From positions 2,057 through 66,056 of the forward strand of contig VBKD01000174.1 in the NCBI GenBank assembly GCA_005888075.1: DNA of 64,000 bases, written 5' to 3'. Below the pieces are notes generated by a model. That model was not told the origin of the DNA. It saw only the letters and a program-made list of their open reading frames with translations, and did no database searches. Shown in pieces: positions 14,695 through 60,513 of this stretch; within the stretch, counting starts at the first letter, position 1; the number at the start of each line of letters is the position of its first letter. This stretch comes from Chloroflexota bacterium. GTDB taxonomy: Bacteria; Chloroflexota; Dormibacteria; Dormibacterales; Dormibacteraceae. A program made the position numbers and the translations under genes.

Positions 14695-15612
14695 ATGCCC
14701 GTGCCGCTCGGTATCAAACCGGGCCACCGCGCCAGAGCATCCCGCCGGCGCCTGAGCCCATCACGCACCATCCTCCTCGCCGCGCTTGCCATTGTCCTTT
14801 CGTCGGTGGCTGGCGGTCTCGCGTACTTCATCCCAGCCGCGCAGACGGCGATCGCGTCGACCGGGCAGGCCGTGCACGTTCCATCCCCATCCCCGACGTC
14901 CCTGTTCACCGCATCGCCGTCGCCGGCTCCGGTCGCAAACGTCAGCGGAGCGTTCACCGTGCTCCTTCTCGGATCGGACGACGACTCCAAGTTCGGACCC
15001 GATCACGTGCTCACCCAGTCGATGATCCTGGTGAGGGTCGTGCCCTCGACCAAGCAGGTCACCATGCTCTCGATCCCGCGCGACCTGTACGTGCCGATGT
15101 CGGTGGGATGGTCGGGCAAAATCGATGGCGCCTACTCGTATGGAGGTGCCGGCGCGGCCATCGCGACGGTGGAGCAGAACTTCCACGTCCACGTCGACGA
15201 CTACATATGGGTGGGTCTGCTCGGACTGATCAAGTTGATCGACGCCATGGGCGGAGTCGACGTCGTGACCAGCAACCCGGAGTACGTGCGGTCACGCCAT
15301 GGCGACCTGCAAAGCGACCTCGGCCGCTCGCAAAGGCAGCAGCAGGTCCTGATCGCGATCCGTCAGAAAGCCAGGCAAATCGCCCCTGCAGACCTGCCCG
15401 TCATGGCTAGCGCGATAGGCGGTGAGCTGAAAACGAGCATCAGCATCTCCAAGGTGGCCGAGTTGCTGCCGCTGGCCTCGAGCTTCGACAACCCTGACTC
15501 GATCCATCAGATCGTCCTGCTCAATCCGTACACCCATGGCGGGGGCCCCGACGGCAGCATCGTCGGGAACTGGGACCTGATCCTGCCGCTGGTGCACCAG
15601 ACCTTCCCATGA
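14695..15612 (+). CDS. LytR-CpsA-Psr (LCP) family cell-envelope phosphotransferase
   Basis: 305-aa ORF with an N-terminal TM anchor, FTVLLLGSDDD, SMILVRVVPSTKQVTMLSIPRDLYVP, IDAMGGVDV and RSQRQQQVLIAI. The segment between GGVDV and YVRSRHGD looks unusually short. Confidence 0.8.
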   Translation: MPVPLGIKPGHRARASRRRLSPSRTILLAALAIVLSSVAGGLAYFIPAAQTAIASTGQAVHVPSPSPTSLFTASPSPAPVANVSGAFTVLLLGSDDDSKFGPDHVLTQSMILVRVVPSTKQVTMLSIPRDLYVPMSVGWSGKIDGAYSYGGAGAAIATVEQNFHVHVDDYIWVGLLGLIKLIDAMGGVDVVTSNPEYVRSRHGDLQSDLGRSQRQQQVLIAIRQKARQIAPADLPVMASAIGGELKTSISISKVAELLPLASSFDNPDSIHQIVLLNPYTHGGGPDGSIVGNWDLILPLVHQTFP

Positions 15613-16748
15613 CCCCTCGCCTGCTGCCCCAGTTCTTGCTCGCCGTGGGACTTGCCTTGTTGATGGTGGTGACTGGCGCCTTCACATACATCACGATCGG
15701 CAACCACCAGACGAAGGTGGCCCTGAAGGTGCAGAAGCCGACGGAGCCGACGCCGAGCCCGAAGGCATTCGTTCTGCCGGGCACGATTTACGTCGCCCAG
15801 TCAGGCGCGCTCTACAGCCTGAACGCGGGACGCTTCCACCAGCTGACGCCCGAGGCCGGCTGGTCCCAACCCGCCCTTTATCCGGACGGAAGCAACCTGC
15901 TCGCGGTCAAGAACACCGGGTGGTATTCGGACATCTACGTCTTGAACCGCTTTGGGAATGTGATGCGGCAGGTCACCAACAACAGCGGACCCCCAAGGAA
16001 CAACGACACCGGCGCGAAGGACTGGGCCTTCTACCCGCGCCTCAGCCCTGACCAGGGCACGTTGTGGCTGACGTACGACCAGCCCAAGGGCGGATACGAC
16101 ACCGGCTTCTCGATCTGGGCGATGCCATTCAACGGCACGATGCGCCAGGCGCGGCTCTGGACGATTTCCGGCGATCACACCGGCGGCGATGTGCAGTCGA
16201 TTCCGCTTCCGGGCGGCGGGATCATTTACACGAAGTACGACTTTGGACCCGACCAGAAGCTGGTCGGCCGGCTGTGGTTCACCAACCGCGCCTATTCCTA
16301 CGGCAAGCCGCTGACGGACCCGTCCGAGGACTGCCGCCAGCCGTCGCTGTCTCCCGACGGAAGCCAGCTCGCGATGATCTGCACCTACGAGAAGCAGGTC
16401 TCGTATCTCACAATCGCCTCCTGGAGCGGCAACAACCTGGGGCCGCGCAAGAACCTGGTCACCAACCAGATGGCCGCGCAGCCGGCGTGGGCGCCGGACG
16501 GCTCAGGGATCGCATACCTGGCGCCAGGCTCCAAGGCAGGACTCGGGACCTTCCAGCTGTGGTGGCTGGCCAAAGGCGCCTACACGCCGCCGCCGCCGGC
16601 CCCGATACCGACGCCCACCCCCGGAGGACCGCACAACGGTCCGCTGCCCAGCCCCTCGGCGCCACCGCCGCTTCCCGTGGTGAAGCCGTTGGAGATGACC
16701 ACCGGACTCGGCCTCGACGCGACCTCGCCGATCGCCTGGAGCAGCTAG
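15609..16748 (+). CDS. Membrane-anchored PD40/TolB-like beta-propeller protein with a Pro-rich C-terminus
   Basis: 379-aa ORF with an ATGA overlap to the LCP gene. It has a TM anchor, repeated P.LSPDG / PAWAPDGSGIAY (PD40-like) motifs, and a PPPPAPIPTPTPGGP tail. Confidence 0.7.
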   Translation: MTPRLLPQFLLAVGLALLMVVTGAFTYITIGNHQTKVALKVQKPTEPTPSPKAFVLPGTIYVAQSGALYSLNAGRFHQLTPEAGWSQPALYPDGSNLLAVKNTGWYSDIYVLNRFGNVMRQVTNNSGPPRNNDTGAKDWAFYPRLSPDQGTLWLTYDQPKGGYDTGFSIWAMPFNGTMRQARLWTISGDHTGGDVQSIPLPGGGIIYTKYDFGPDQKLVGRLWFTNRAYSYGKPLTDPSEDCRQPSLSPDGSQLAMICTYEKQVSYLTIASWSGNNLGPRKNLVTNQMAAQPAWAPDGSGIAYLAPGSKAGLGTFQLWWLAKGAYTPPPPAPIPTPTPGGPHNGPLPSPSAPPPLPVVKPLEMTTGLGLDATSPIAWSS

Positions 16749-53409: not shown

Positions 53410-54441
53410 TCAGGCTTTCAGGTAGGCATCCAGCAGTGAATTGAGGTCCGGGCGGTCGTTCAAGACGTAGCCTTTGGCGCCGGCCCCCACGACCGAGCGT
53501 GTCAGGCCGGCCTGGCGGAGGACGACCATGTGCTGGTGAATTGTCGATTTGGCAAGGCTTAGCTGTTCCGCGATATCGCTGAGGCTCGACTCGCCGTTCG
53601 ACAGCTGTCGCAGGATGCGCAGCCTGGTCTCATCGCCGAGCGCCTTGTAAACCTGTACGAGCTCGGCGTCGGGGGCGACCTCGGCGCTGGCGGGGAAGAA
53701 GAAGTACTTCGAACCCTCGTGTTCCGAGATGTCAACCCAGGGCCGGTTGAGGACAGTGGGGATCAAGAGAATGGACTTGATCCAGGGTTCTGGCCGGTAC
53801 TCCACCCCTCGGGTCACACGCACGATCAAGCGGTCGGCCGGCATCTGTTTCGACAGTCGGGCAGCGGCCTGCGCCGAGGCCTTTAGCTCCGCTTCGAGCG
53901 GCGGCCCGACCTCGCTGAAGATCTCACGGTCGAAGCGCTCGATGACATTCGCCACGTCGTCGGCCAGAGCTTGCGGATCGGCGTCGAGCGCTCTCTCGGC
54001 TGCCTCGCGCGAGCCTTTATGCACCTGCTTTAGAAACTCACGCCTCGCGCCGGCGTCACCTCGAAGGAGCGCTTCGCTCACCTGAGGTTCGGCGTGGAGA
54101 ACTGATCGCTTCGCTTCTCCCTTGGTGTCGCGGCGGAGCCGCGCCACCAGCGAGGCGACGCTCTTGCCGCCGGACTCCCGCGCGAGGCCGGCCAGCCCTA
54201 CGAAGGCATAACCCTCCCTGCCGACGAGCCATCGCGCCTTGTCGCGCAGCTCAGGGGAGGCCTTGCGCCGCATCGACTTGATCCACTCCTCGCCCACTTC
54301 GTAGCTGCCCGGGGCCTCGTCTCCGAGGAAAAGCCCAAGGGCGATCAGGACCTCGTACGCGAGACCCCAATCGGCCTCGACTGGCAGCTGCCTTGCAACG
54401 GGGACCCCCCTGACTCGCTGGGGGCTTGACGGAATAGGCAT
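53410..54441 (-). CDS. ArsR-family HTH regulator with a large N-terminal helical domain (DUF5937-like, from memory)
   Basis: 343-aa ORF. The C-terminal VYKALGDETRLRILRQLSNGESSLSDIAEQLSLAKSTIHQHMVVLRQAGL is an ArsR/SmtB wHTH. Confidence 0.8.
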   Translation of the reverse strand: MPIPSSPQRVRGVPVARQLPVEADWGLAYEVLIALGLFLGDEAPGSYEVGEEWIKSMRRKASPELRDKARWLVGREGYAFVGLAGLARESGGKSVASLVARLRRDTKGEAKRSVLHAEPQVSEALLRGDAGARREFLKQVHKGSREAAERALDADPQALADDVANVIERFDREIFSEVGPPLEAELKASAQAAARLSKQMPADRLIVRVTRGVEYRPEPWIKSILLIPTVLNRPWVDISEHEGSKYFFFPASAEVAPDAELVQVYKALGDETRLRILRQLSNGESSLSDIAEQLSLAKSTIHQHMVVLRQAGLTRSVVGAGAKGYVLNDRPDLNSLLDAYLKA

Positions 54442-54484
54442 TCGGTATCTACAGTATAAATCGTTCGGTACTTACCGAACGATT
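54441..54484. promoter_or_regulatory. Candidate operator: 12-2-12 perfect inverted repeat plus an extra half-site
   Basis: AATCGTTCGGTA-CT-TACCGAACGATT lies at 54459-54484. A third TTCGGTA copy at 54441-54447 overlaps the arsR-like start codon. The element sits between divergent genes. Confidence 0.55.
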
Positions 54485-54496
54485 CAGGAGGCACAG

Positions 54497-54661
54497 ATGA
54501 GCTGGTACGAGCGAGAGCTGATGGCCAAGTCGCGACAGCAGGAGCTGGAAAGAGAAGTCGATTACCGGCGCCGTACGAGCGAGACACATCGTTCGCGGCG
54601 GCCGCTTCACTACTGGCTGCTCGTCGCGTTGCGAAGCTGGATCATCGGGATCGCCCGCTAG
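54497..54661 (+). CDS. Small tail-anchored membrane protein (54 aa)
   Basis: It is not in the ORF track because it is shorter than 60 aa. The ATG lies 7 nt after AGGAGG: MSWYERELMAKSRQQELEREVDYRRRTSETHRSRRPLHYWLLVALRSWIIGIAR*. It has a charged helix followed by one C-terminal TM segment. Confidence 0.5.
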   Translation: MSWYERELMAKSRQQELEREVDYRRRTSETHRSRRPLHYWLLVALRSWIIGIAR

Positions 54662-54712
54662 ACGGCATAGGGCAATCGTAAGGTCACCGCGCCTATCGTC
54701 CTCCGGCCAGGA

Positions 54713-55585
54713 TCAGGCGGTGGCGAGTTCTCGGCCAGGTCGCAGAACCTGCAGCAATGAGTGAACGGCCACGTGGGGGCTGGTGCTGTTCCGCTCGAGC
54801 CAGTGCTGTGTCACGGCGAGGTACGCGTCGACCCGGGTCGATTTCCGGCGCATCCGCTCGATCAGGCCGTGGCGGCTGACGAGGTGCTCCACCGGGGTGA
54901 ATACGTTGTCGTACCAGCTTGCCGCCGCCGCGTCGAGACTGACATCACGATGCTGTTCGAGGCTCAGAAAGTATTTGTGGCCCACGATGTGGGAATAGAG
55001 CTCGTCGTAGCGGCCGAGACCGGCCATCGCCTTCCTGGACTCCGGCCGGACACTGTCGAGGCCGCTGCGCTCGAGGAACAGGGCGTACTCCGCCGTCCTG
55101 GCGAGGGCCGAGCGGCTGAGGTCACGCCCGAGAGGCGCCCGCGTCCTGACCTCGATCACCCTGGCTTCGATCCGGTCCCTGTCGAGCGCGCGTGCGATCG
55201 ACACGCGGTGGTGGCCGTCGCTCACGAAGTAACGGTCCTCGAGCTGGTACACCTCGATCGGAGGCACGTCGCCGGCGCCCGTGGCCATGAAGGCGAAAAG
55301 CCGCGACCAGCGCTCGCGCTGGCGCCGGTGCAGGGGCAGAAACGCCGAGTCGAAGTCGCCGCGCTTGGCGGGCGACGCGGTGCCGACGATCTTGTCGAGC
55401 AGGATCTCCTGCACGCCGCGCGACGCCTTGGCTTGGAACCGCGCCGCCCGCATAACCCGGTCGACGGACGGCAGGCGCAGCGAGCGATAGCGGCCGGGGA
55501 CCCGGAAGACCATGCGCCAGAACGCACGCCGCCGCGCGGCGTCGAACTCCTCGCGAGCTTCTAGATGGTCCAGGCCGGAAAGCAC
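54713..55585 (-). CDS. ParB/sulfiredoxin-like N-terminal domain protein with a helical C-terminal domain (DUF4032-like, from memory)
   Basis: 290-aa ORF. VPPIEVYQLEDRYFVSDGHHRVSIARAL is the ParB/Srx DGHHR core. Confidence 0.65.
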   Translation of the reverse strand: MLSGLDHLEAREEFDAARRRAFWRMVFRVPGRYRSLRLPSVDRVMRAARFQAKASRGVQEILLDKIVGTASPAKRGDFDSAFLPLHRRQRERWSRLFAFMATGAGDVPPIEVYQLEDRYFVSDGHHRVSIARALDRDRIEARVIEVRTRAPLGRDLSRSALARTAEYALFLERSGLDSVRPESRKAMAGLGRYDELYSHIVGHKYFLSLEQHRDVSLDAAAASWYDNVFTPVEHLVSRHGLIERMRRKSTRVDAYLAVTQHWLERNSTSPHVAVHSLLQVLRPGRELATA

Positions 55586-55718: not shown

Positions 55719-56045
55719 ATGCAAGAACGAGGAACATCGACGGGTTTCCTTCGGCGCCTCCGGGATCCGGGCTACCGGCTAAATGGGGAGAACCCAGCCA
55801 CCACGAGCCTCGAGCATGCCCGGCGCTGGGCGACCAACTACGACAAGCTCCTGGAATTCAAACGCGAGCTGATGACGCTGATCAGGCGTCGGGCCGAGGC
55901 CTCTGACCCCGACGTGGCTCGCGCGATCATGGACACCGACATCCTGCTGCTCGAGACGCAGATCTCGCGCTTCCAGCAGAGAAGGGATTACTGGCACATT
56001 CGTTCGGCCGAGCTTGCGGGCGGGCGAGGTGGCGGCGCCAACTGA
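55719..56045 (+). CDS. Hypothetical helical protein (copy P1 of the local ~60-aa domain)
   Basis: The ATG at 55719 lies behind TAGGAG, giving 108 aa. GENPATTSLEHARRWATNYDKLLEFKREL...RRDYWHIRSAELAGG aligns without gaps to the N-terminus of 58936..59469. It overlaps the cheB start. Confidence 0.55.
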   Translation: MQERGTSTGFLRRLRDPGYRLNGENPATTSLEHARRWATNYDKLLEFKRELMTLIRRRAEASDPDVARAIMDTDILLLETQISRFQQRRDYWHIRSAELAGGRGGGAN

Positions 56046-56652
56046 CCACTTATCCCAGCGGTTTCGTCGCCATCCGCCCTTTGAGATAGTGGCGATCGCC
56101 GCGTCGGCGGGCGGCGTCGTGGCTTTGACCAACGTCCTCGGCCACCTGCCGGCTACGTTCGGCGCGATCATGGTGGTCGTGCAGCACCTCGACCCTCGAC
56201 ACCGCAGCCTCATGCCGCAGGTAATCGGCAGGCACTCCAAGCTGCCGGTGGTCCTGGCCATGGATGGCATGGAGCTGGAGCGCGGCCACGTTTATCTCGC
56301 GCCGCCTGACCGCCATCTCCTGGTCAACCGCGACGGTACCGCGAGTCTGACCCAGACTGAGCTCGTGAACTTCGTCAGGCCGTCGGCGGACCTACTCTTC
56401 GAGTCGGTGGCGGCCGCCTACGGCGAGCGCGCGATCGCCGTGGTTCTGACAGGGGCCGGCAAGGACGGCTCGATGGGGGTGACCGCGATCAAAGAGCGGT
56501 CTGGCACGGTGATCGCGCAGGACGAGTCGAGCTCCGAGTTTTTCTCCATGCCCTCGGCCGCGATCAAAAGCGGTGCGGTTGACTTCGTGCTTTCGCTCGA
56601 TGAGATACCAGCCGCGCTGCAGATGCTCCTGGCCGGCGAGGTCCCTGATTGA
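56014..56652 (+). CDS. cheB: CheB-type protein-glutamate methylesterase catalytic domain (no receiver domain)
   Basis: 212-aa ORF with IVAIAASAGGVVAL, VVVQHLDPRHRS and FVRPSADLLFESVA..VVLTGAGKDG. The start is uncertain (TTG at 56014 or GTG at 56029). Confidence 0.8.
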   Translation: MRAGEVAAPTDHLSQRFRRHPPFEIVAIAASAGGVVALTNVLGHLPATFGAIMVVVQHLDPRHRSLMPQVIGRHSKLPVVLAMDGMELERGHVYLAPPDRHLLVNRDGTASLTQTELVNFVRPSADLLFESVAAAYGERAIAVVLTGAGKDGSMGVTAIKERSGTVIAQDESSSEFFSMPSAAIKSGAVDFVLSLDEIPAALQMLLAGEVPD

Positions 56653-58505
56653 TCGCGGCCGACGACAAAGAGTTCGAAACGCTCCTCGAATACCTTCGAG
56701 ATACGCGCGGATTTGACTTCACCGGATACAAGCGGAACAGCCTGGCGAGGCGCGTCAGCCGGCGCTCCGGCGAGCTCGGGCTGGAGAATTTCACCTCCTA
56801 CCTCGACTATCTTCAGGTGCACCCCGAAGAGTTCGGAATCCTGTTCGACAAGATCCTGATCAACGTCACCGACTTTTTCCGGGACAGGCCGGCCTGGGAC
56901 TACGTCGCCGCCAATGTGGTTCCGAAGCTCCTCGCTGGGAAGGGCGACATCAGGATCTGGAGCACCGGGACCGCATCGGGTGAGGAGGCTTACTCGGCGG
57001 CCATCCTTCTCTGTCAGGCGCTGGGCCCCGAGAGTTTCCTCCGGCGAGTCAAGATCTACGCGACCGATATCGACGAAGCGGCTTTGAACAAAGCCCGTGC
57101 CGGCTATTCAGCCAAAGAGCTCAAGTCGCTCGACGATGAGACGCGGGCGCGATATTTCGAGCCGCAGGGCGGGCGATTCGCTTTTCGCGCGGCGCTGAGG
57201 CGGGCCGTGATCTTCGGCAAGCATGACCTGATGCAGGACGCGCCGATCTCACGTCTCGATCTCCTGATCTGTCGCAACACGCTCATGTACTTCACGGCTG
57301 AGGCGCAGGGACGAATCCTCGCCAGGTTCCACTATGCGTTGAACGACGAAGGCTATCTGTTCCTCGGACGCGCCGAGATGCTGCTGACGCACACCTCGGT
57401 GTTCGTACCTGTTGACGTCAAACAGCGCATTTTCCACAAGGTGCCGAGGCCGCCGATCCGCGAACGGAGGCTTCTGCTGAATCAGTCAGGCAAAAAGGAA
57501 GCAGCGGCCCCTGTCGCGCGCGAGGCGCGCCTTGACGATATGGCCGCGGAGCTGGCGCCATACGCCCAGATCGTCGTCGACTCGGCGGGCCGCCTGGTGT
57601 TGGCAAATCAGCAGGCCCGTCGCGCCCTCGGCATCGACGCCAAGGCCGTCGGCCGGCTTCTCAAGGACCTCGAGATGTCGTACAAGCCAGTCGACCTTCG
57701 ATCCCCGTTGGACAAGGTCTACCGCGACCGCAGCACGGTCACCCTGCAGGGTGTGCCCCACCAAGCGGAGGATGAGAGCGTCCAGTACCTCGATGTCGCT
57801 TTTGTCCCGCTCCTCGACGCCGATGGGGTGGTAGCCGGTGTCGGCGTCAGCTTCGTCGATGTGACCCAGGTCATGCAGCTGCGCACTGAGCTGGATAGAT
57901 CGAGGCAGGAGCTGGACACGGCCTACGAAGAGCTGCAGTCGAGCAATGAAGAGTTGGAGACCACCAACGAGGAGCTGCAGTCCACGGTCGAAGAGCTCGA
58001 GACGACCAACGAGGAGCTGCAGTCGAGCAACGAGGAGCTCGAAACAATGAATGAGGAGCTCGAATCCACCAACGTGGAGCTGCAAAGCATCAACCTCGAC
58101 CTGCAGCAGCGAACTGACGAGGTGGATCGGCTGAACACATTCCTACTGGCCATCACGGGCAATATGCCCCTCGGCGCGGTTGTCCTCGATCCCGAGCTGA
58201 ACGTGCGGGTCTGGAATGAAAAGGCCGCGGACTTGTGGGGACTGCGCTCGGATGAGGTCGTCGGCCGATCCTTCCTCGATCTCGGCATCGGACTGCCCGC
58301 CAAAGAAGTCGGGGGCATGATCCGGGGCGTTCTGCTGGCGAAGCAAGGACAGGATGAATCGGTTGTCGAGGCGGTCACGAGACGCGGAACGCCGATTCGC
58401 TGCCGGGTCGCCGCCTACGCCATTTCGGACGGAAGCGGACCCGGCGGCGTCGTCCTTGTGATGGAAGAGCTGGCCGCCGAACCCGAGAGCGCCACGACCT
58501 CTTAG
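56649..58505 (+). CDS. cheR: CheR-type methyltransferase fused to PAS - heptad coiled coil - PAS (no kinase domain)
   Basis: 618-aa ORF with a TTGA overlap to cheB. Motifs FDFTGYKRNSLARRV, IRIWSTGTASGEEAYS and LLICRNTLMYF are CheR. Two PAS-like segments flank nine EEL[QE][ST][ST]N heptads. Confidence 0.85.
   Translation: MIAADDKEFETLLEYLRDTRGFDFTGYKRNSLARRVSRRSGELGLENFTSYLDYLQVHPEEFGILFDKILINVTDFFRDRPAWDYVAANVVPKLLAGKGDIRIWSTGTASGEEAYSAAILLCQALGPESFLRRVKIYATDIDEAALNKARAGYSAKELKSLDDETRARYFEPQGGRFAFRAALRRAVIFGKHDLMQDAPISRLDLLICRNTLMYFTAEAQGRILARFHYALNDEGYLFLGRAEMLLTHTSVFVPVDVKQRIFHKVPRPPIRERRLLLNQSGKKEAAAPVAREARLDDMAAELAPYAQIVVDSAGRLVLANQQARRALGIDAKAVGRLLKDLEMSYKPVDLRSPLDKVYRDRSTVTLQGVPHQAEDESVQYLDVAFVPLLDADGVVAGVGVSFVDVTQVMQLRTELDRSRQELDTAYEELQSSNEELETTNEELQSTVEELETTNEELQSSNEELETMNEELESTNVELQSINLDLQQRTDEVDRLNTFLLAITGNMPLGAVVLDPELNVRVWNEKAADLWGLRSDEVVGRSFLDLGIGLPAKEVGGMIRGVLLAKQGQDESVVEAVTRRGTPIRCRVAAYAISDGSGPGGVVLVMEELAAEPESATTS
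57927..58115 (+). repeat. Nine tandem 21-nt (heptad) coding repeats within cheR-PAS
   Basis: EELQSSN EELETTN EELQSTV EELETTN EELQSSN EELETMN EELESTN VELQSIN LDLQQRT. The repeats are in-frame and coding, not a CRISPR or intergenic array. Confidence 0.85.
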
Positions 58506-58939
58506 GCGCTCGCGCCGGCCATCGACGCGCGCACCTGGTTGCGCCAGCGCTGAATGGCATCCTCAAGAGCCTCCACGTCGGTGGCCACCTCGAGGCGTTC
58601 CGTCGGCGGCAGCTCGGGCGAGGCAGCTCGAAGCTTTGCCACCAGGGCAGTGCCCATCTCGATCAGCCTCGTGTAGGTGATCACCCAGAAGTCGGGCGCC
58701 TCGGGCGAGCCAAACTTGAGCAGCGCGCCGCGATACGCGGCCTGGGCGGTCTCCGTTTGAGCGCGAAACCGCTCCGCCTGTTCCCGCAGGCGCTCGTCGT
58801 GAGCCTGCGGCCGCAGAGGCCCACCGTCAAGGAGGCGGCGCTCCGTGGATGCCAGAAGCAGGCGCTTCGACTGCAGCACCAGGAGTCGCGAAGTAACGAT
58901 CGCCTCCGAGACCGACTCCATCAGTGCCATGGCCATCAT
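58502..58939 (-). CDS. Hypothetical helical protein (C-terminal half is copy P4 of the local domain)
   Basis: This is the 3' part of ORF 58502..59281. The ATG at 58939 overlaps the upstream stop (ATGA), giving 145 aa. GSPEAPDFWVITYTRLIEMG...LEDAIQRWRNQVRASMAG. Confidence 0.5.
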   Translation of the reverse strand: MMAMALMESVSEAIVTSRLLVLQSKRLLLASTERRLLDGGPLRPQAHDERLREQAERFRAQTETAQAAYRGALLKFGSPEAPDFWVITYTRLIEMGTALVAKLRAASPELPPTERLEVATDVEALEDAIQRWRNQVRASMAGASA

Positions 58940-59469
58940 CCTTTCACCGTCGCCGGCAGGCTTGCCGCGTAACCCCGATTCCTCACCACAACGAGCATGA
59001 CCTCGAGTCCGAGTTCGCCCAACCGCCTTCTCAGCCGCATCACGTACGTCCGGACCTGAGCGTCCGACAGCCGTGAGTTCTGCCAGGCGAGCGTGGCCAG
59101 CTGTTTGGTCGTAAAGGGACGCTTTGGGTGCCGGAGCATGAAGTCGAGCAGGTCCGCTTCGCGACGTGTGAGCCGGATCGAATGGCCGGCAAAGCTCAGC
59201 GTGTGATCGTTCCGGTCGAGGACGACGCCCGCGAGCTCGGTATGACGGTCGCGCCAGGTGTCCAGCCGATCCTCGACCCACGCCAGATTCTGGCGAAGCT
59301 CTTCGACTGGGTGCCCGTTGGCTCGAGCCAGCACGGCACGCAGCACCGCCGCGAGCTCCTCGTAGATCGAGATCCAGCTCGCGACCTCGGCGAGCTCTGG
59401 CGTTCCCAGATCCTCGCCGGGCAATTCAACGAATTGGCGGCGAATTGCTGCCATCGCCCTTTTCCCCAC
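58936..59469 (-). CDS. Winged-helix (OmpR/PhoB Trans_reg_C-type) DNA-binding protein with an N-terminal copy (P2) of the local helical domain instead of a receiver
   Basis: 177-aa ORF. N-terminal GEDLGTPELAEVASWISIYEELAAVLRAV...RLDTWRDRHTELAG. C-terminal IRLTRREADLLDFMLRHPKRPFTTKQL...VRTYVMRLRRRLGE...VRNRGY. Confidence 0.7.
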   Translation of the reverse strand: MGKRAMAAIRRQFVELPGEDLGTPELAEVASWISIYEELAAVLRAVLARANGHPVEELRQNLAWVEDRLDTWRDRHTELAGVVLDRNDHTLSFAGHSIRLTRREADLLDFMLRHPKRPFTTKQLATLAWQNSRLSDAQVRTYVMRLRRRLGELGLEVMLVVVRNRGYAASLPATVKG

Positions 59470-59508
59470 CGCTGACTCTACAACGCGGTTTATGGGGATA
59501 TGGGCCCG

Positions 59509-59537
59509 ATTTTGACGATGGCGAGCAAATTTTTGAC
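59509..59537. promoter_or_regulatory. Direct repeats ATTTTGAC / ATTTTTGAC spaced ~20 bp apart in the divergent region
   Basis: ATTTTGAC lies at 59509-59516 and ATTTTTGAC at 59529-59537. Two-helical-turn spacing is typical of OmpR-type wHTH sites. They could also be -35-like TTGAC elements. Confidence 0.35.
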
Positions 59538-59542
59538 CGGGA

Positions 59543-59833
59543 ATGTTACGCAGCGCGGGCTATACCAGTGACGAATTGACTGCGCCAGGAAGGATGCGGG
59601 CGGACCGGGGGCCGGCCACGCGAGGGGCCAAACCGCCAAGGGAGCGGTTGGCCCCTCTGCCCGGGGTCGAGGTTTACGTGCCTCACATCGACTCCCTGGA
59701 CGAGATCTGTGGCTGGCTTGGCACCTTCAGGGAGCGGCTTCATCGAGCCCGCGATGAGGAGCGTCCGCAGGTGGCGGCGGTCATTCAACAGCTGGAGACG
59801 CGCTACCAAAACAGGCGCGCCGAGTTGTCCTGA
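59543..59833 (+). CDS. Hypothetical protein (degenerate copy P3 of the local domain)
   Basis: 96-aa ORF. The conserved part is IDSLDEICGWLGTFRERLHRARDE...LETRYQNRRAELS. The true start may be the GTG near 59679. Confidence 0.4.
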   Translation: MLRSAGYTSDELTAPGRMRADRGPATRGAKPPRERLAPLPGVEVYVPHIDSLDEICGWLGTFRERLHRARDEERPQVAAVIQQLETRYQNRRAELS

Positions 59834-59874: not shown

Positions 59875-60513
59875 GTGGCCGGCACGCCCGTGCGTGTGTT
59901 GATCGTGGAGAACCATCAGCTTGTCTCCGAGAGTCTCGGCATGTTGCTCGACGCACAGCCCGACCTACATGTCGTCGGCTACGCGGCGTCTGTCAGGGAG
60001 GCGGCCACGCTGCCGCCGGGTGTTTCGCCGGACGTGGTGATCGTCGATTTCCACCTGGACGACGGCTTTGGAGACGAGGCGGCCGCGGCGATCAAGAAAG
60101 TCCATCCTCGCGCCCGCTTCATATTTCTCACCCGCGATGACGGCGACGGGGCGCTGCTCGCCGCTGTGGAGTCCGGTGCAAGCGCCTTCGTCCACAAGTC
60201 CAGGGCCGCTTCGGAGCTGATCGCAACCGTCTACAAGGTTGCCCAGGGGGGCTCATTCATCACACCGCAAGCGATCTCCGGAGTGCTGCGCCGGACGCGC
60301 GACCGTGAAGTCAAGCGCGACAAGCTGTCCCCGCGAGAGCTAGAGGTGCTTCAGCTCATGTCTGAAGGCATGGCCAGCCGCCAGATCGCCAAGCAGCTCG
60401 GCATCAGCTATACGACGGTTCGCACCCACATTCGCTCGATCGATTCCAAGCTTGGCGCACACTCCAAGATCGAATCGGTCGCCACGGCGCACGAATTGGA
60501 GCTCGTGAACTAG
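59875..60513 (+). CDS. NarL/FixJ-family response regulator
   Basis: 212-aa ORF. Receiver: VLIVENH...VVIVDFHLDDGFG...FIFLTRD...FVHKS. LuxR HTH: LSPRELEVLQLMSEGMASRQIAKQLGISYTTVRTHIRSIDSKLG. No adjacent kinase. Confidence 0.85.
   Translation: MAGTPVRVLIVENHQLVSESLGMLLDAQPDLHVVGYAASVREAATLPPGVSPDVVIVDFHLDDGFGDEAAAAIKKVHPRARFIFLTRDDGDGALLAAVESGASAFVHKSRAASELIATVYKVAQGGSFITPQAISGVLRRTRDREVKRDKLSPRELEVLQLMSEGMASRQIAKQLGISYTTVRTHIRSIDSKLGAHSKIESVATAHELELVN

Follow-up and report, generated by a model that had tools for sequence, protein, structure and literature searches.

A predicted helical-hairpin domain family around split cheB and cheR-PAS genes of Dormibacterota: a candidate coupling module between a methylation sensor and transcription

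Introduction

How might a transcriptional regulator be controlled when a small helical hairpin stands where an OmpR-type protein carries its receiver? The question is raised by a gene cluster in a 64,000-nucleotide stretch (the window) of contig VBKD01000174.1, from the Chloroflexota bacterium assembly GCA_005888075.1, in which four small genes, here called P1 to P4, surround separate cheB and cheR-PAS genes. One of them, P2, encodes a hairpin fused to a winged helix-turn-helix (wHTH) domain. A previous interpretation made from the letters of this DNA without database searches (the sequence-only reading) held that P1 to P4 carry four copies of an unrecognised domain, that this domain is an alternative input module, and that the neighbouring CheR and CheB enzymes possibly read or modify it. 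Here we find that P1, the P2 N terminus and the P4 C-terminal half are, on profile comparison, members of one helical-hairpin family. The cluster is a distinctive receiver-less and kinase-less arrangement with an undescribed domain family, the mechanism of which we infer, and the placement of the family suggests a coupling module that links a methylation sensor to transcription.

Dormibacterota, a phylum abundant in soil, are uncultured, and to our knowledge almost nothing has been described of their regulatory biology. CheB/CheR-PAS proteins outside chemotaxis are widespread, and we know of no substrates or outputs assigned to them; the literature on Dormibacterota signalling and CheB-CheR-PAS proteins yielded nothing specific. 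The cluster offers a compact, testable case of such a system, with a candidate substrate (the coiled coil of CheR-PAS itself), candidate adaptors (P4 and P1) and a DNA-binding output (P2).

Results

A predicted hairpin domain shared by P1, P2 and P4

The copies lie in three genes of the window:

55719 to 56045, plus strand: P1, 108 amino acids, a stand-alone copy of the predicted hairpin domain; no Pfam or NCBIfam match.
58502 to 58939, minus strand: P4, 145 amino acids, a predicted four-helix protein; no Pfam or NCBIfam match.
58505 to 58711, minus strand: the putative divergent copy in the C-terminal half of P4, from profile-profile comparison.
58936 to 59469, minus strand: P2, 177 amino acids, an N-terminal predicted hairpin domain and a C-terminal OmpR/PhoB-type wHTH.
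About 59221 to 59430, minus strand: the P2 hairpin domain, from the family profile and an AlphaFold2 model.
About 58966 to 59187, minus strand: the P2 wHTH, Pfam Trans_reg_C (PF00486), residues 95 to 168, 5.5e-14.

Scans of Pfam-A and NCBIfam returned zero families for P1, the P2 N terminus, P3 and P4. Pairwise BLASTP between the copies (E = 0.001 for P1/P2, 0.009 for the P2 N terminus with P4, 0.01 for P3 with the P2 N terminus, and no match for P1/P4) was judged too weak to decide membership, and family profiles were used instead. The homologues retrieved numbered 563 for P2, 33 for P1, 20 for P4 and 34 for P3; the few named homologues of P1, P2 and P4 belong to Dormibacteraeota or 'Chloroflexi' metagenome-assembled genomes (MAGs). 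In hhalign, the P1 family aligned with the P2 N-terminal family (87%, E = 3.7e-6, 68 columns) in the same register as the gapless first-helix alignment of the sequence-only reading. E24, W37, Y41 and W92 are invariant in the joint alignment of the two, and L21, G23, T28, R95, E98, L99 and G101 are nearly so. A wider-family profile, built as a 100-sequence alignment and compared with the family of each copy, matched that of P2 at 97.8% (E = 1.1e-12), that of P4 at 89.5% (E = 2e-6), and the P4 C-terminal half alone at 94.6% (E = 6.5e-8). P4 scored 41.7, whereas the best of 100 column shuffles reached 22.2, a value that reversed controls never exceeded either. Moreover, a P4-like protein at locus L149 bridges the two groups, being matched by both the family hidden Markov model (HMM; 2.5e-12) and the P4 HMM (1.7e-7). 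The proposed check by profile comparison reached significance for P1, P2 and P4 (E from 1e-12 to 4e-6), and the claim of four copies holds for these three; P3 is only marginal, as described below.

The motif of the three copies is LxGE(D/N)PxT…W…Y..L…W..R..EL. P1 and P2 have all of it, from the LxGE(D/N)PxT lead-in through the Trp and Tyr of helix 1 to the Trp..Arg..EL that closes helix 2; P4 keeps the helix-1 Trp/Tyr and the helix-2 Trp, with GSPE in place of GEDP. The proposal that the P2 domain occupies the position of a receiver was borne out, as the AlphaFold2 model places a helical hairpin (helices 26-49 and 56-80) directly before the wHTH beta-sheet, with a predicted local distance difference test score (pLDDT) of 84, and no Response_reg match was found at E ≤ 1. 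P4 was modelled as four helices, the last two of which (82-109 and 112-144) are the putative domain copy. The N-terminal half of P4 contains an invariant SRLLVLQSKRL; as a candidate second copy of the domain it was rejected, any similarity being undetectable (E = 0.03).

A family absent from current domain libraries

The joint profile of P1 and the P2 N terminus was searched against 1.84 billion representatives. The output comprised 636 clusters (50% identity) at E ≤ 1e-3 and 85 at E ≤ 1e-10, mostly stand-alone proteins of 90 to 130 amino acids with the pattern DPxRLLPGEDPxT..DAxHW..VY.EL…TD…LE…R…RL.FW..R..EL; few members are named, and Dormibacteria are among them. The domain-wHTH fusion recurs in at least 10 further clusters (P0224, P0229, P0240, P0276, P0286, P0293, P0302, P0312, P0318 and P0322), P0213 is fused to a REC domain, and P0184 and P0185 are tandem-domain proteins. 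This architecture, together with that of P2, supports the proposal of an alternative input module. In addition, tblastn matched P1 in 62 of 80 wider-family metagenome loci (34-40% identity), and a tblastn search of plasmids with one wider-family member gave zero matches.

The domain was called unrecognised in the sequence-only reading, and it remains so after library searches: Pfam-A (2025) found no recurrent family in 100 wider-family members, an NCBIfam 20 scan of the wider family found nothing, and PDB sequences searched with two family profiles gave nothing. Foldseek with the P4 model returned generic helical proteins only (best E = 0.097, with no specific PDB neighbour), and with the P2 model it returned matches to the wHTH only (the DNA-binding domains of ArlR, PhoB and GlnR, about E = 1e-5). 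Membership in EAD5 (PF19957), one of the effector-associated domains (EADs), was considered and rejected; 5 of the 100 members match it, with a best E of 5.7e-5 and all under the 27-bit cut-off, and P1 to P4 do not match. Altogether, the profile data identify the hairpin as a genuine undescribed family of predicted domains of roughly 70 to 90 residues. In each domain, a short LxGE(D/N)PxT segment at the N terminus leads into two antiparallel helices, in which a Trp, a Tyr and a second Trp are invariant and several Arg occur.

Linkage of P2 and P4 to cheB and cheR-PAS

The enzymes of the cluster are encoded between P1 and P4:

56014 to 56652, plus strand: cheB, the catalytic domain only, without a receiver; Pfam CheB_methylest 2.7e-62, residues 26-202.
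56649 to 58505, plus strand: cheR-PAS-coiled coil-PAS, 618 amino acids, without a kinase domain; CheR_N 2.5e-16, CheR 3.7e-47.
Residues 306-408 and 502-606 of CheR-PAS, plus strand: the PAS domains (PAS_4/PAS, Pfam).
57918 to 58070, plus strand: the heptad-repeat coiled coil of CheR-PAS, residues 424-474, from a regular-expression motif scan.

The genes and coordinates of the sequence-only reading proved correct, with cheB and cheR as separate, overlapping genes according to the open reading frame (ORF) listing and Pfam. The Ser/His/Asp catalytic motifs of CheB are intact in the translation (ASAGG, VQH and GAGKDG). In the ORF listing, P1 overlaps the cheB ORF, the ends of cheB and cheR have 4 nt in common, and an ATGA serves as both the stop of P2 and the start of P4. 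Because of these overlaps, the proposed layout of three transcription units (P1-cheB-cheR, P2-P4 and P3-NarL), each led by a copy-bearing gene, is correct. A GGAG Shine-Dalgarno sequence lies 6 nt 5' of P1, the first gene of the P1-cheB-cheR operon.

We scanned loci from one genome per species. A P2 orthologue (56-73% identity) was present in 40 loci, all from Dormibacterota-type MAGs; counts on the P4 side were limited to the 31 loci with at least 4 kb there. P2, P4, cheB and cheR-PAS occur together in 29 of the 31 species-level loci, while L018 and L045 have lost cheB, cheR and P4 altogether and kept P2. The same pattern is seen in L004, from outside this set, in which P2 adjoins a GAF-HisKA-HATPase-REC gene; L029 holds a P4 remnant only. 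Relatives with P4 identities of 36-48% have kept the ATGA overlap between P2 and P4. Furthermore, another Dormibacteria MAG (L149, 6001-10532) encodes, in this different order, a domain-wHTH protein, two CheB proteins, CheR-PAS and, convergently, a P4-like protein. Since the trio of domain-wHTH, P4-like and CheB/CheR-PAS genes survives rearrangement and is lost as a unit, its linkage is more than inherited gene order.

P1 is full length in 12 of the 29 cheB-bearing loci, reduced to a remnant in 2 (C-terminal remnants 5' of cheB at L012 11368-11724 and L032 11339-11725) and undetectable in 15; with P1 missing or decayed in 17 of 29, it is dispensable for the cheB/cheR unit. Beyond P1/cheB, a PAS-HisKA-HATPase gene is present in 16 of the 25 loci with at least 7 kb downstream. 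The corresponding slot in the window (53410-55585, minus strand, 5' of P1) holds genes for a 290-amino-acid protein with a C-terminal DUF4032 match (1.8e-5) and a 343-amino-acid protein with a C-terminal ArsR-type HTH.

Other features of these loci deserve mention. The two CheB proteins of L149 are one of 336 amino acids with a Cys-rich C-terminal extension (CPDCSG…CRIGH) and a second of 192 amino acids. A fifth paralogue, P5 (about 100-128 amino acids; sequence type MASRKEEAAGAAWEGADLERPIxGENPxSxSLEDARxW…), was found next to the gene of a DinB/IMS-type polymerase in 11 of 25 loci of Dormibacterota, for example at L007 5891-6280 (minus strand), L034 about 15570-15878 and L010 13261-13662, and is not in the window. 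Six syntenic loci with P2 63-69% identical (L022, L024, L026, L027, L038 and L047) are labelled Verrucomicrobiia, Actinomycetes, Acidoferrum, Eisenbacteria or Nitrosopolaris; they are probably mis-binned or mislabelled Dormibacterota contigs.

Candidate methylation sites in the CheR-PAS coil

The methylation consensus, reportedly due to Alexander and Zhulin in 2007, was scanned in a strict form, [ASTG][ASTG]xx[EQ][EQ]xx[ASTG][ASTG], and a relaxed one, [ASTG]xx[EQ][EQ]xx[ASTG][ASTG]. Residues 424-474 of CheR-PAS contain six relaxed motifs at 7-residue spacing, compared to 0.2 expected from 1000 shuffles; the coil reads TAYEELQSS NEELETT NEELQST VEELETT NEELQSS NEELETM NEELEST. Neither form occurs in P1 to P4, and the relaxed form is also absent from CheB and the NarL regulator. 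Likewise, MCPsignal (PF00015) matched none of P1 to P4 and none of the 100 wider-family members. The mapped methylation sites of FrzCD, E168, E175 and E182, are spaced 7 residues apart (PMC2535941). The spacing of the motifs matches that of the FrzCD sites, and on the simplest reading the coil of CheR-PAS is likely its own methyl-accepting substrate. With the motifs in this coil and never in P1 to P4, we read the hairpin as a coupling module and not as a substrate of CheR and CheB.

Genomic neighbourhoods of the wider family

The 80 metagenome loci of the wider family (478 kb) were fetched with a degenerate DNA pattern, and CheB or CheR is encoded in none of them. Thus, the co-occurrence with cheB/cheR that the sequence-only reading had offered as a check holds in Dormibacterota (29 of 31 loci, and L149 in another gene order) and fails in the wider family. 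The same absence, together with the missing motifs and the frequent loss or decay of P1, speaks against its suggestion that CheR and CheB read or modify the hairpins. A census of 89 immediate neighbours shows HATPase_c (14), HisKA (11) and Response_reg (7) as the most frequent Pfam families. The domain gene lies directly 3' of a REC-HisKA-HATPase gene in 12 loci of one soil lineage (L060, L061, L069, L070, L076, L077, L082, L095, L098, L114, L118 and L126), on the same strand and after a gap of 60-120 nt, in the slot where a response-regulator gene normally sits. These 12 are near-identical orthologues and therefore represent few independent events.

Elsewhere, L148 has a domain-wHTH gene amid NarL-type two-component genes, and L150 (5572-7887) has the gene of a 98-amino-acid stand-alone copy directly 5' of a domain-wHTH gene, followed by kdpA, kdpB and kdpD. 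L150 also encodes an 87-amino-acid wHTH fragment, and the slot is usually that of KdpE. Two domain copies are adjacent in L133. Neighbouring genes that encode at least two copies, one of which is joined to a functional domain, were thus found in our cluster, L149, L150 and L133. The kinase, REC, NarL and kdp neighbours and the fusions indicate that the domain belongs to signal transduction generally and is not tied to CheB/CheR.

P3 and the control regions

The third unit and the intergenic region before it are as follows:

59470 to 59593, no strand: the divergent P2/P3 control region, from an alignment of 33 loci.
59543 to 59833, plus strand: P3, a small conserved ORF 5' of a NarL-type regulator; no Pfam or NCBIfam match.
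59875 to 60513, plus strand: a NarL/LuxR-type response regulator, REC and GerE (Pfam), 3' of P3.

P3 is present in 28 of the 37 loci with at least 2.5 kb on its side, the NarL-type regulator in 27 and both in 24. Homology places the likely P3 start at ATG 59594, and a possible short domain copy, statistically marginal, spans about 59687 to 59830 (SLDEICGWLGTFRERL…LETRYQNRRAELS). In hhalign, the score of P3 against the wider family was 22.0 (best shuffle 22.1); against the P2 N terminus it was 17.8 (95th percentile of the shuffles 16.4). The register matches that of the family (Trp on Trp, RRAELS on RHAELAG), and only the helix-1 Trp and the RRAEL ending of the motif are kept. P3 is a real conserved ORF whose membership in the domain family is marginal by profile score.

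At 59620-59661 (plus strand), the 5' part of P3 contains a hairpin conserved at the nucleotide level, GCGAGGGGCCAAACCGCC-AAGGGAG-CGGTTGGCCCCTCTGCC, which is found at the same place in L007-L041. RNAalifold on 24 loci predicted an 18-bp stem, with double changes at 7 of 23 predicted pairs, an invariant GGAGGGA loop, and many G-U pairs that form on the P3 sense strand only; no Rfam family matched it. Most other loci also have a GCUGC-N5-GCAGC hairpin directly 3' of the P3 ATG. The P3 hairpin may act in the P3-narL mRNA as a regulatory RNA element, and part of the N-terminal 'protein' conservation of P3 may be due to it.

The P2/P3 region contains a conserved TTTTGAC(C) element, which is doubled here (59511-59517 and 59532-59538). 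The doubling is an insertion or duplication of ~22 bp in this genome only, and the 32 other aligned loci have a single copy; the idea that the 59509-59537 repeats are the operator of P2 was consequently abandoned. A -10-like box, TGTAGAGTCA, is conserved 5' of P2, and the regions 5' of P1 share no motif.

Discussion

Starting from the observed homology, architecture and gene linkage, we infer that hairpins bind each other, that CheR-PAS methylates its own coil, and which way the signal runs. Our tentative proposal, for which we would claim somewhat less than an even case, is that the hairpin serves as a protein-protein coupling or dimerisation module in place of a receiver, with P4 linking P2 to a self-methylating CheR-PAS. 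A hairpin of one polypeptide would form a four-helix bundle with that of another, or with some other helical partner. In P2, the hairpin in the receiver's place would decide whether two wHTH domains pair on DNA. P4, whose translation is coupled to that of P2 and which shares the inheritance and loss of cheB/cheR-PAS, would be the partner that joins P2 to CheR-PAS. The latter would be a kinase-less cytoplasmic sensor, the CheR domain of which would write methyl groups on its own EEL(Q/E)(S/T)(S/T)N heptad coil, and CheB, which has no receiver, would remove them. As single-domain copies, P1 and perhaps P3 would have an accessory role, competing for the same hairpin interface or modulating it. 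Paired copies on adjacent gene products speak for the coupling role, as they match the published signature of the EADs, adaptors of bacterial conflict systems for which homotypic coupling was proposed from copies on proteins encoded by adjacent genes (Kaur, Burroughs, Iyer and Aravind 2020; PMC7159879). A phosphotransfer-free route, in which the methylation and PAS state of the CheR-PAS coil would pass via the P4 and P1 hairpins to the receiver-less P2, is a more demanding idea and, in our estimate, an unlikely one.

Several observations weigh against this proposal. The domain is the sole copy in its locus for 64 of 65 called wider-family genes, so pairing of paralogues is not the general mode, and homodimerisation or another partner is needed. 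The AlphaFold2 model of P4 is confident in one of five models (pLDDT 91; the others 64-71). No histidine kinase adjoins the cluster in the window, compared to 16 of 25 related loci with a PAS kinase, and given the latter, kinase input may still operate. Every linked locus comes from one phylum, Dormibacterota, and vertical inheritance may account for some of the synteny; the rearrangement in L149 and the joint losses argue against pure inertia. Finally, an operator of P2 was looked for, and none was identified.

Other explanations were weighed against the coupling proposal. The similarity could be an artefact, arising by chance or from the composition of Arg/Glu/Leu-rich helices encoded by a high-GC genome, and the BLASTP values of just 0.001-0.01, the missing P1/P4 match and a P3 score at the edge of its shuffle distribution are what such an artefact would produce. 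It is nevertheless highly improbable, for the profile E-values (1e-12 to 4e-6) come with a consistent register, shuffled and reversed controls stay at or below 22 against 42 for P4, and all 636 clusters have the same motif; for P1, P2 and P4, the profile values and shuffle controls refute it. If the homology is real, the hairpin might still do no more than dimerise or stabilise P2 constitutively, with unrelated roles for the small proteins and a gene order kept by phylogenetic inertia. Helical hairpins are generic, as the best Foldseek E-value of 0.097 for P4 illustrates, all linked loci are Dormibacterota, and P1 and P3 are dispensable in many species. We consider this quite unlikely, given that P4 is lost jointly with cheB/cheR while P2 stays, that the same three partners meet again in the rearranged L149, that translational coupling of P2 and P4 is conserved at such low P4 identity, and that the invariant non-helical LxGE(D/N)PxT segment and the Trp/Tyr/Trp core exceed the needs of a plain coiled coil.

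The model of the sequence-only reading, in which CheR and CheB would modify Glu/Gln on P1, P2 and P4 and so control P2, draws on the tight linkage of P2 and P4 to cheB/cheR in two gene orders, on the co-transcription and overlap of P1 with cheB, and on the presence of an invariant EE pair in P2 (E37 and E38) and of invariant E/Q positions in P1 and P4; the substrates of CheR are, moreover, antiparallel helical hairpins in methyl-accepting chemotaxis proteins (MCPs). Set against these points are zero methylation motifs in P1 to P4 and six in the CheR-PAS coil, the lack of a cheB/cheR neighbour in the 80 wider-family loci, the absence or decay of P1 in 17 of 29 cheB loci, and the persistence of P2 after cheB/cheR loss, and we regard the model as improbable. 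A better case can be made that the domain binds histidine kinases, as a non-phosphorylated receiver stand-in or a mimic of the DHp four-helix bundle; P2 and the small copies would then be under the control of a sensor kinase that they bind directly, with cheB/cheR-PAS as a lineage-specific add-on. The neighbour census and the 12 loci with the domain gene right after a REC-HisKA-HATPase gene point that way, as do the PAS-HisKA-HATPase gene past P1/cheB in 16 of 25 loci, P2 beside a GAF-HisKA-HATPase-REC gene without cheB/cheR in L004, the contexts of L148 (amid NarL-type two-component genes) and L150 (5' of kdpABD), and the REC fusion P0213. However, the 12 loci count for few independent events, no kinase is encoded in the window up to 35 kb from the cluster, and the neighbours of most family members are unrelated. 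In addition, there is no conserved phosphotransfer Asp or His, the residues that never vary being E, W and W, and those close to invariant G, Y and R. Kinase binding is, in our judgement, unlikely.

The domain forms a sizeable family (at least 636 clusters at 50% identity) that current libraries have missed. It can take the place of an OmpR-type receiver, and bacterial one- and two-component signalling would thereby gain a new module for input or dimerisation. The phosphotransfer-free route, if true, would be a path of methylation-based signalling to gene expression through an undescribed domain family.

Comparison with known systems

The hairpins resemble those of MCPsignal domains in being antiparallel helical hairpins encoded beside CheR and CheB; unlike them, P1 to P4 have neither an MCPsignal match nor a methylation consensus. 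The EADs are similarly small non-enzymatic domains, stand-alone or fused, with several copies on the products of adjacent genes (PMC7159879). The contexts differ, being wHTH, REC, kinases and CheB/CheR for the hairpin and NTPase/vWA conflict systems for the EADs. EAD5 is described as alpha+beta, and EAD5 matches arise in 5% of members only, below the cut-off.

The DHp domain of histidine kinases, Spo0B and the antikinase Sda are helical-hairpin modules of four-helix bundles. The hairpin family shares with them two antiparallel helices of similar length and a location beside kinases and receivers, and bundle pairing is proposed for it. It differs from DHp in having no H-box or conserved His and in its LxGE(D/N)PxT lead-in and Trp/Tyr/Trp core; HisKA and Hpt profiles matched none of P1 to P4 and none of the 100 wider-family members. 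In the wider family a His often precedes the invariant Trp; P1 and P2 lack it.

KEGG annotates fusions of CheB/CheR-PAS with a histidine kinase as 'two-component system, chemotaxis family, CheB/CheR fusion protein'. The cluster has the same CheB_methylest, CheR_N/CheR and PAS-coiled coil-PAS parts and the same NEEL heptad coil, but here these are distributed over separate overlapping genes without a kinase or receiver output, and domain-wHTH and P4-like genes always stand alongside. In the OmpR/PhoB family, dimerisation of the N-terminal module controls DNA binding. P2 resembles these regulators in its full Trans_reg_C effector (Foldseek matches to PhoB, GlnR and ArlR, template modelling score about 0.8 on the target) and in the placement of a regulatory module N-terminal to the wHTH; in P2, however, this module is not a receiver (PF00072) with a phospho-acceptor Asp but an 84-residue two-helix hairpin.

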